The notes below the pieces were generated by a model that saw only the letters and a list, made by a program, of their open reading frames with translations, was not told the origin of the DNA and searched no databases. A DNA stretch of 19,309 bases from a virus (Duplodnaviria > Heunggongvirae > Uroviricota > Caudoviricetes). Location of the stretch: IMG/VR virus record IMGVR_UViG_2690315742_000008, positions 1 through 19,309 of that record, one strand, 5' to 3'. The position numbers were made by a program, and so were the translations under genes. Positions within the stretch are counted from its first letter, which is position 1. Every line of letters starts with the position of its first letter. Positions 5,981 to 7,604 of this stretch are shown one piece after another.

Positions 5981-6011
5981 GAGGCAAAGAAAACCCGGCG
6001 CTGAGGCCGGG
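5981..6011 (-). terminator. Intrinsic terminator (minus strand) just downstream of the cargo cassette: CCCGGC-CTCAGC-GCCGGG followed by TTTTCTTT
   Basis: 6-bp GC stem plus T-run, 8 nt after the stop of the 6019..6951 gene. Analogous in position to lambda tImm downstream of rexB. Confidence 0.65.
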
Positions 6012-6018
6012 TGAGATA

Positions 6019-6951
6019 TTAAAGAACCGATTTAACAAGATGGTTTTTACGGTACAGACCTATGCGATCATTGTGAATCTCAGTAGTCTCCACTAAAAGA
6101 GAAACAATCTGTCCGACCTTGTGTTTTTTTTGTATTAAATCTAGCATTTCAATCGGATAGGAAGCCTTTAAATGTTCACCACCAACATCAAGCTCCAGCT
6201 TCCCATATTTGGATAGAACGACCAGTTCGCCTGTAACCGTTTCAGTAATGGGAGGGGATGAAATGGTTGATGTAAGTCTACTCACCAAGTACTTAATTTT
6301 ATTGGAGTCAATAGTTGCCACCTTGGTGCCATTACTAAATGGACCGGTCCAACTTGCATCAAATGTTAAGTTGTGTTTATCGCATTCCTCTACGATTCTC
6401 TTAAGGCTTACAGTGGAATTGTATCCAATTTCAGCGACGTGATTCATGAAGTTGTTGTCGTCATCGCTTAACAACAAATCGAATATGCCTTTTACAGCCT
6501 TGCTGGGTACTGTTTCTACTAATTCTGCTATTCCTGTAGAGAAGGTGACGCCCAATTTTGTAGACCCAGGGGATAAATCAGCCAGCCTGAGGTTTAAGGA
6601 GCTTTTCACGTCGTAGGGAACTTTTTTTGAGTCCTTGCCTGAGGCAATTTTGTGTGTTGCTCTTTGTATTAGCGCTGCAAGATTTGTTGAAATAGCCCCA
6701 AGCAGCTCTAAAGGAATAGAGCCAAAGTCAACCTCAGAGCCTTTCAGCCGCAGCTCAAAAAAATCGATAAGTGGGTGCCGACTATCTTGCTTTAATTTTT
6801 CGGCCTTCAAATCGCTCAGATGAGAATCCATGGAGCGATAAAGAAGCATGTCAGCAAAGGACCTGGTTTTGTTTTGCTTCATTGCATCGACTTCTTTTTG
6901 AATGAAATCAATGCGTTTATCGCAATTTTTAAACATTGATTTATCATTCAT
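6019..6951 (-). CDS. Hypothetical protein B of the cI-proximal cargo cassette, 310 aa, no recognisable motif
   Basis: ATG 6949-6951 overlaps the stop of gene A (ATGA) and has GAGGA 7 nt upstream. AT-rich by eye compared with the flanking N and cI genes. Terminator immediately downstream. Confidence 0.6.
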   Translation of the reverse strand: MNDKSMFKNCDKRIDFIQKEVDAMKQNKTRSFADMLLYRSMDSHLSDLKAEKLKQDSRHPLIDFFELRLKGSEVDFGSIPLELLGAISTNLAALIQRATHKIASGKDSKKVPYDVKSSLNLRLADLSPGSTKLGVTFSTGIAELVETVPSKAVKGIFDLLLSDDDNNFMNHVAEIGYNSTVSLKRIVEECDKHNLTFDASWTGPFSNGTKVATIDSNKIKYLVSRLTSTISSPPITETVTGELVVLSKYGKLELDVGGEHLKASYPIEMLDLIQKKHKVGQIVSLLVETTEIHNDRIGLYRKNHLVKSVL

Positions 6952-7427
6952 AAAAAAATCCTCACTAACCCTTTCGGGTTTTCACTGCGATCAAAACCAA
7001 ACCAACCGCGCCAGTAGCTACGCCAGTACTCATAATCATAGTTAGGGTCATCTAAATTCTTCATGAGTAGTAGGACATCAATTTTGTAGTTTTGTTTGAT
7101 GTAGTTTCGGTCAAGCAAATTATCGACGCGGCCCCGAAGCATGACAGGTATTGAGTTTATATTGTTATAGTCACATACCAACAAAATATCAATATCATCA
7201 GGCTCTGGTTTAGACGTGGTGTATGAACCATCAACCCATATTTCTGTAAAACAGCCATATTGAGCAGATAATTCTCGAATAGATTCGAGTAGCTGTATAA
7301 AATTACAGTATAGCATGCCTCGCCTGGATGATGAAGGAAAGCAATCGACACAATACGATTTTAATCCAGCTTCATCCATGTCATGGAACCCTGGCTCAAA
7401 CAGGGGTGGGTAATTAATTTTATCCAT
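6948..7427 (-). CDS. Hypothetical protein A of the cargo cassette, 159 aa, with a candidate Pol-beta-type nucleotidyltransferase motif (WVDGS-x9-DID)
   Basis: ATG 7425-7427 with AAGG 6 nt upstream. The motif …EIWVDGSYTTSKPEPDDIDILLV… fits hG[GS]x9-13Dh[DE]h. The gene lies downstream of cI, where lambda carries rexA. Confidence 0.55.
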   Translation of the reverse strand: MDKINYPPLFEPGFHDMDEAGLKSYCVDCFPSSSRRGMLYCNFIQLLESIRELSAQYGCFTEIWVDGSYTTSKPEPDDIDILLVCDYNNINSIPVMLRGRVDNLLDRNYIKQNYKIDVLLLMKNLDDPNYDYEYWRSYWRGWFGFDRSENPKGLVRIFL

Positions 7428-7541
7428 AAAAAACCTTGCTATACATTTGTTTTTTTTATTAAAAATCTAACCACCGAAATGGTGACGGCAAGATGTTACA
7501 TGGGGTTACAATCAGCCAATACACCGCATTAAATAATTTTT

Positions 7542-7592
7542 TCACCAGCTATGCGCCGACCAGAACACCTTGCCGATCAGCCAAACGTCTCT
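7542..7592 (-). pseudogene. Remnant of the 3' end of a second, related cI allele (encodes …RDVWLIGKVFWSAHSW-stop), directly downstream of and in frame with the intact cI stop
   Basis: Compare with the intact cI C-terminus …ETVRIIGRVFWSSHSW. Nucleotide stretch 7549-7582 is roughly 75% identical to 7612-7645 by hand alignment. Confidence 0.55.
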
Positions 7593-7604
7593 TCAGGCCA
7601 CTGG

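Follow-up and report, generated by a model that had tools for sequence, protein, structure and literature searches.

Which genes take the place of lambda rexA-rexB in a mosaic lambdoid prophage, and what might they do there? The question is raised by a 19,309-nucleotide (nt) stretch of caudoviral DNA (IMG/VR record IMGVR_UViG_2690315742_000008, positions 1 to 19,309), hereafter called the window, whose positions are used for all coordinates. The window is the early region of such a prophage, and two minus-strand genes, A (6948..7427, 159 amino acids (aa)) and B (6019..6951, 310 aa), lie in it between a CI-type repressor gene and OL/pL; open reading frame (ORF) calls agree with both. A first-pass annotation, made from the sequence without database searches, had regarded them as a candidate phage-exclusion or abortive-infection module that could not be placed in any named defence family. 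The latter statement is now outdated: A and B match the PADLOC system PDC-M63 nearly end to end (A to PDC-M63A, E = 1.1e-41, residues 1-158; B to PDC-M63B, E = 7.5e-45, residues 23-304), both hidden Markov models are matched and the genes are adjacent, so that the PADLOC definition of the system applies to them. Judged by these matches, the pair belongs to a catalogued candidate family and is not a previously unknown system.

PDC-M63 is one of 145 PADLOC 'phage defence candidates', a set whose prediction rested on guilt-by-embedding (within BREX, DISARM or type I restriction-modification (RM) systems) and whose members have the standing of predictions only. Phage mEpX1 has, between its cI and N, hypothetical genes that share 99.6% DNA identity with the cassette, with the same gene order and adjacency and no structural difference; the cI allele beside the cassette in the window differs from that of mEpX1. 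Because mEpX1, whose record gives Escherichia coli K-12 MG1655 as host, carries the module, this catalogued defence candidate is directly testable in a native lysogen context; the instance in the window is of note mainly as a clean rexAB replacement in a workable phage. A search of the literature returned no mention of DUF6932, PF22014, the PHROG identifiers or the newer mEpX1 accession numbers.

The cassette in the rexA-rexB slot

Both edges of the cassette align with lambda. Positions 5962-6012 are 94% identical to lambda 35775-35825, the terminator right after the rexB stop codon, and positions 7546-7603 are 100% identical to lambda 37196-37253, comprising the last 27 nt of cI and the 31 nt downstream, while the sequence between these two edges is unrelated to rexA-rexB. 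Because both edges are homologous to lambda junctions, the cassette is, by alignment, an exact allelic replacement of rexA-rexB. The slot itself, which the first-pass annotation had recognized as equivalent to that of rexAB, is further defined by the CI-type repressor gene (7605..8312, minus strand; helix-turn-helix and peptidase S24 domains), which lies directly upstream of the cassette in the same orientation, and by flanking operator-like palindromes of the form ATAACnnnnGTTAT (6 matches observed versus 0.5 expected). Three of these mark OR, between cI and cro (8325..8387), and two (5782-5820) accompany a promoter-like TTGACC-17-TATCTT on the minus strand at OL/pL (5779..5820), upstream of an N-like gene (5285-5584), which places the cassette between cI and OL/pL.

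The impression that the block is AT-rich and separately acquired holds on calculation, with a modest effect: the cassette has a G+C content of 40.2%, among the lowest 0.8% of equal-sized segments, against 46.0% for the window and 49.0% for N; the contrast with cI (43.6%) is small, and the G+C content at third codon positions (GC3) is equal to that of cI. Together, the lower G+C content and the lambda-homologous junctions support separate acquisition. The remnant of a cI 3' end that had been noticed at the upstream junction proves to be two overlapping remnants, one of lambda type (encoding QWPEETFG followed by a stop codon, 7577-7603) and one of a second type (LIGKVFWSAHSW followed by a stop codon, 7542-7580), next to a resident cI whose product ends in IIGRVFWSSHSW. 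From their sequences, these remnants read as traces of recombination that recurred at the 3' end of cI. In addition, the cassette allele of the window (at least 97% identical in 15 loci, L024-L038) is joined to nine different repressor types. Because of the two remnants and the association of one allele with nine repressor types, we conclude that the cI 3' end acts as a recombination linker through which immunity type and cassette are shuffled independently; the cI 3' end and the terminator together would serve as linkers for exchange of the cassette.

The likeness to lambda RexAB extends to the genomic slot, to the cI 3' end and terminator sequences that bound it, and to the organization as a two-gene operon downstream of cI, but not to the proteins. 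Neither A nor B has a Rex match in PADLOC or Pfam, and neither has a membrane segment (A reaches a maximum 19-residue hydropathy of 1.1 and B of 1.4), in contrast to RexB, which spans the membrane several times. Membrane depolarization is therefore unlikely, and a Rex-like membrane mechanism was rejected. As a separate observation, phage HK544 (JQ086374, 27671-28714; EF120455) has both lambda-type junction sequences enclosing a different, shorter block (about 1 kb) whose two annotated proteins are hypothetical, which is another uncharacterized occupant of the rexAB slot.

Within the cassette, the stop codon of A and the start codon of B overlap in the sequence ATGA (6948..6951, minus strand), as had been noted, implying translational coupling; the 4-nt overlap is also present in nearly all homologous enterobacterial loci. 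Each gene is preceded by a Shine-Dalgarno sequence with a T-run spacer (AAGG-T6-ATG ahead of A and GAGGA-T7-ATG ahead of B), again in agreement with the initial description. The strong intrinsic terminator predicted behind B is recovered at 5985..6012 (minus strand) and is homologous to the lambda terminator behind rexB; its G-C-rich hairpin (5993-6012) has a 7-bp stem with 6 G-C pairs followed by the U-tract UUUUCUUU, with a folding energy of -13.7 kcal/mol (z = -2.6 versus shuffled sequences). The cI-A intergenic region (7428..7604, minus strand, 177 nt) contains, besides the two cI remnants, a weak hairpin (7470-7489). An internal promoter that had been suggested there (TTGCCG-16-TAGATT, 7464-7491) was rejected, since it matches the consensus at 7 of 12 positions, which is below the pass mark of the promoter scan and no better than chance; this stretch scores as a terminator-like hairpin, if a weak one. 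The spacer has an unremarkable fold (z = -0.66), and a search for structured RNA in it was negative.

Comparison with other genomes identifies one uncharacterized pair, of a nucleotidyltransferase (NTase) and an OB-fold protein, as a recurrent occupant of the slot downstream of cI, in combination with many immunity types, in several genera and as far afield as streptococcal elements. Of 80 IMG/VR viral loci, 79 have A and B side by side, and the remaining one ends at a contig edge; in six species genomes and in metagenomic homologues (A identity 34-46%), the two genes are neighbours in the same orientation at all loci examined for which sequence was available, down to an A identity of 32-36%. 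In at least 22 of the 38 A lineages in viral loci, the gene immediately preceding the pair, in the same orientation, encodes a CI-type repressor; in three A lineages the ORF called for the repressor runs 16-19 nt into that of A. This arrangement is found in phages mEpX1, PhiR30_1 and Erwinia vB_EhrS_59 and in prophages of Biostraticola, Silvania, Proteus, E. coli and others. In the Streptococcus satellite Javan304 (L022, 3001-4306), an A-like gene is followed by one for a B-like protein (hhalign probability 94.6% for B). This A-like gene and the one in Streptococcus phage MissE1 are distant from A and belong to lysogeny modules of Gram-positive elements. Other pairs neighbour a type I RM system with YoeB/YefM, a DUF4011 helicase-nuclease, or anti-restriction genes within an element; one adjoins imuB/dnaE2-type mutasome genes, and several lie in ordinary chromosomal surroundings. 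Homologues thus recur in prophage immunity regions and beside RM and toxin-antitoxin (TA) genes, the kind of context that the first-pass annotation had expected of a defence module. The pair is rare: of 5426 complete E. coli genomes, 18 carry it, and a set of 50,697 records yielded three distinct phages that have it.

Proteins A and B

Pfam places protein A in DUF6932 (E = 1.8e-24); its PHROG match, 9194, is to a group of unassigned function. Across 42 homologues (36-81% identity) its invariant residues are G67, S68, K73, D78, D80, the run R136-S-Y-W-R-G, F143, R147 and E149. The first-pass annotation had drawn attention to the sequence WVDGS-x9-DID, and the conserved part of it (DGS-x9-DID) conforms to the hG[GS]-x9-13-[DE]h[DE]h signature of the Pol-beta superfamily, with G67, S68, D78 and D80 as its invariant positions. 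A third catalytic carboxylate, D117 (in KIDVLL), is shared by at least 90% of the homologues and lies on a predicted strand (116-123). The C-terminal invariant residues form an arginine- and aromatic-rich motif, RSYWRGWFGFxRxE.

The AlphaFold2 model of A is a confident one (predicted local distance difference test 96.6, predicted template modelling score 0.90). Its best match among PDB structures in Foldseek is 2rff, a minimal NTase; next are MNT antitoxins from HEPN-MNT pairs (7ae2, 7ae9, 8xeo, 7bxo and 6m6u), which were crystallized with the HEPN toxins that they AMPylate; CdnC, Pol beta, AadA and poly(A) polymerase rank after these. Secondary Pfam matches among the 42 family members are to Polbeta (28 members), DNA_pol_B_palm (25) and NTP_transf_2 (22), with a best E-value of 8.8e-6, and no further Pfam family recurs among them. 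When the sequences of A and B were searched against PDB chains, matches stayed at chance level, except that the GS...DxD segment of the A family profile aligned to the Pol beta palm. Because of the invariant signature, the confident model, the structural neighbours and the secondary Pfam matches, A is assigned as a minimal Pol-beta-type NTase that looks catalytically intact and is predicted to be active, in keeping with the superfamily originally suggested for it. It is an acidic protein (pI 4.7).

Protein B is more difficult to interpret. It matches PHROG 6603, but scans of Pfam, NCBIfam and PHROG gave no function for it, and no Pfam or NCBIfam family was matched. The model comprises an N-terminal helical hairpin, a central alpha/beta region matching no assigned fold, and a C-terminal OB fold (approximately residues 235-309), apart from which Foldseek detected nothing significant in the PDB. 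The initial description of B as lacking any recognizable motif therefore stands insofar as no catalytic signature was found, but has to be amended for the OB fold. A profile search located relatives in 269 clusters among 1.84 billion cluster representatives; they are stand-alone proteins of about 310 aa, and among the 150 of the 269 clusters listed, nearly all are of 300-330 aa and no domain fusions were seen. In 89 relatives (19-46% identity) S130 is the sole invariant residue, the preceding G129 is present in 88, and conserved acidic or histidine residues form no grouping suggestive of an enzyme. G129 and S130 belong to a GST[RK] loop that is modelled with low confidence and is probably flexible. 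B is basic (pI 8.3) and soluble, with a basic N-terminus.

Two identities considered for B were set aside. Matches to adenylyl cyclases and to the Cas10 palm (probability 0.2-0.5) were judged unreliable, there being no conserved acidic catalytic residues, and assignment as a HEPN protein was rejected because B has no Rx4-6H motif, no consistent HEPN match in Pfam, and an OB fold instead. Separately, residues 62-146 of B (window positions approximately 6514-6768) also match the N-terminus of another PADLOC candidate, PDC-M32A (E = 3e-5), and may represent a domain common to the PDC-M63 and PDC-M32 candidate systems.

Possible roles of the pair

The best overall explanation, which we put forward tentatively, is that this coupled PDC-M63 module, having replaced rexAB, is a lysogen-expressed exclusion or abortive-infection pair built like a type VII TA system. 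A role in defence or exclusion is the more secure part of this explanation and is somewhat probable, given the replacement of rexAB in its slot, the recurrent position downstream of cI, the RM and TA neighbours and the match to PDC-M63. The other part, modification of B by A, is doubtful; it is modelled on HepT-MntA, in which a HEPN toxin is neutralized by AMPylation, and for B is a proposal by analogy. As in mntA-hepT, the NTase gene comes first and overlaps that of its partner, and an acidic NTase is paired with a basic protein; moreover, A is a minimal NTase of similar size to the MntA-type antitoxins that are its best structural matches. It is on account of these MNT neighbours, the NTase-first overlapping gene order, the pairing of acidic with basic protein, and the invariant hydroxyl in a loop of B that a type VII-like switch is favoured. 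Acidic, MNT-like A would nucleotidylate basic, nucleic-acid-binding B, with S130 of the Gly-Ser loop as the proposed acceptor, and the modification would keep B inert. Infection would lower the activity or supply of A, and unmodified B would then bind nucleic acids of replication or translation, halting phage growth.

Several observations weigh against this explanation. B differs from HepT in having neither the HEPN motif nor the HEPN fold, and Pfam, Foldseek and motif searches gave it no recognizable toxic activity; A differs from MntA in its additional invariant C-terminal motif, RSYWRGWFGF. The Foldseek scores of A, with probabilities up to 0.94, are weak in absolute terms (E-values of only 2e-3 to 5e-2 and template modelling scores of about 0.3). 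Expression in the lysogen, with cI or just after it (from pRM), is inferred from position only. Some natural variants also fit poorly with a simple toxin and antitoxin. In E. coli KL53 (L104, NZ_CP030919.1, 4930-6470), the IS4-like element ISVsa5 interrupts A and B is intact; in an IMG/VR contig (L041, 4471-5402), B is apparently split into pieces of 221 and 63 aa and A is intact. Because such A-disrupted and B-split variants exist, neither gene appears to be strictly lethal in the absence of the other, though both cases might also stem from polarity or sequencing error. In Streptococcus phage MissE1 (L021, 2929-3569), B is missing: behind the A-like gene come a 55-aa ORF and an ImmA protease gene, and a RelE-type toxin gene lies just upstream of it; A may thus have a function of its own. 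These three cases count against a simple TA reading, each being a single instance that is trivially explicable.

The MissE1 arrangement, in which an A-like gene has a different small partner, would fit better if A were the constant, active element. B could then be the targeting or sensing subunit and A the effector of a split toxin resembling MenT or AbiEii: the OB fold of B would hold a nucleic acid (phage single-stranded DNA, RNA or tRNA), and A would add nucleotides to its 3' end, blocking its use. A is acidic and has no acceptor-binding domain, and would therefore need a partner to engage nucleic acid; B offers an OB fold and a basic N-terminus; and both the catalytic residues of A and RSYWRGWFGFxRxE are invariant. 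We nonetheless consider such 3'-end modification unlikely. The nearest structures to A are protein-modifying MNTs and not NTases of nucleic acids, and the conserved residues of the OB fold in B are not markedly basic or aromatic. The Pfam matches of A itself are only to DUF6932 and DNA_pol_B_palm and its PADLOC match only to PDC-M63A, with none to AbiEii/DUF1814. MenT and AbiEii toxins are about twice the length of A. More generally, A shares with the NTases of AbiE/MenAT (DUF1814) and with the CD-NTases of CBASS a Pol-beta-superfamily catalytic core and an occurrence in defence or TA contexts, but at 159 aa, versus about 280 aa or more, it lacks their acceptor or helical domain; their PADLOC models are not matched, and the partner B is unrelated to theirs.

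An OB fold is also a natural receptor for oligonucleotides, and translational coupling implies constitutive co-expression of A and B, which suggests a third arrangement, in which A would constitutively make a nucleotide or short oligonucleotide that binds the OB fold and holds B off until phage nucleases, sponges or nucleotide depletion release it. There are precedents for an accessory Pol-beta NTase with an inhibitory product: the oligodeoxyadenylate of Hailong, the p3diT of Clover and the 2'3'-c-di-AMP of Panoptes, made by an NTase or cyclase, each hold an effector off. In the A-B pair, as in these systems, an accessory NTase has a partner, here one that looks non-enzymatic and could in principle bind an oligonucleotide. 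Their effectors differ from B, however (that of Clover is an HD dNTPase), and B has neither a recognizable effector domain nor membrane segments. A is also very small for a signal synthase, and the likeness to these systems is one of architecture, the PADLOC release used (2023) possibly predating them (papers of 2025). We regard a guard of this kind as highly improbable.

The somewhat probable assignment of the pair to defence or exclusion has itself to be weighed against the one functional test of the family. In E. coli NILS69, deletion of prophage-borne PDC-M63AB (a member of the family whose allele is not known to be that of the window) left infection by 10 virulent phages unchanged; the authors of that study describe their own phage panel as narrow, and theirs is the sole experiment on PDC-M63AB that we found in the published literature. 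This negative result, with the pair beside imuB/dnaE2-type genes and those in ordinary chromosomal neighbourhoods, would be expected if the cassette were not anti-phage at all, but an addiction module stabilizing the prophage, or a lysogenic-conversion or DNA-metabolism function (a small terminal transferase with a single-stranded DNA-binding partner) riding in the slot downstream of cI. Against this stand the repeated presence of the pair in the lambda rexAB slot, its association with RM and TA genes, the definition of the family by embedding in defence systems, and a rare, patchy distribution typical of accessory defence cargo, so that a role outside defence is decidedly unlikely.

If defence is confirmed, the pair would add a new type of partner to the biology of NTase-based TA and abortive-infection systems, whereas a clean negative would prune one PADLOC candidate. 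The most far-reaching reading, which we hold to be somewhat unlikely, is that PDC-M63 constitutes a new mechanistic class of NTase-controlled immunity, either a non-enzymatic OB-fold 'toxin' switched by serine nucleotidylation or a Hailong-like guard with the smallest known signalling NTase, and is a standard alternative to rexAB in many enterobacterial prophage immunity regions.

Other features of the window

In order, the window carries ea22-like genes, kil, a cIII RNA thermometer, ral and the N-like gene; OL/pL, the A-B cassette, the CI-type repressor and OR follow; and beyond them are cro, cII, O, a DnaB-type helicase gene and a nin region containing NinB, HNH endonuclease and Dam genes, then a Metallophos phosphoesterase gene and Q. 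The thermometer was recognized through the Rfam model of the lambda cIII thermoregulator RNA (4737-4795, minus strand; 88.5 bits, E = 9e-21), near which lie a Kil-like gene (4536-4775) and Ral (5006-5206).

The DnaB-type replicative helicase (10050-12443, plus strand, 797 aa) is interrupted between its N- and C-terminal helicase domains by a segment with matches to Hint and to LAGLIDADG homing endonuclease, and it therefore probably contains an intein. Two HNH endonuclease genes are also present in the window (12522-13133 and 13559-14146, both on the plus strand). The first, which encodes HNH_3 and AP2 domains and lies between the helicase gene and ninB in the most AT-rich island of the window (G+C content 34-39%, GC3 0.26), looks like an inserted homing endonuclease gene.

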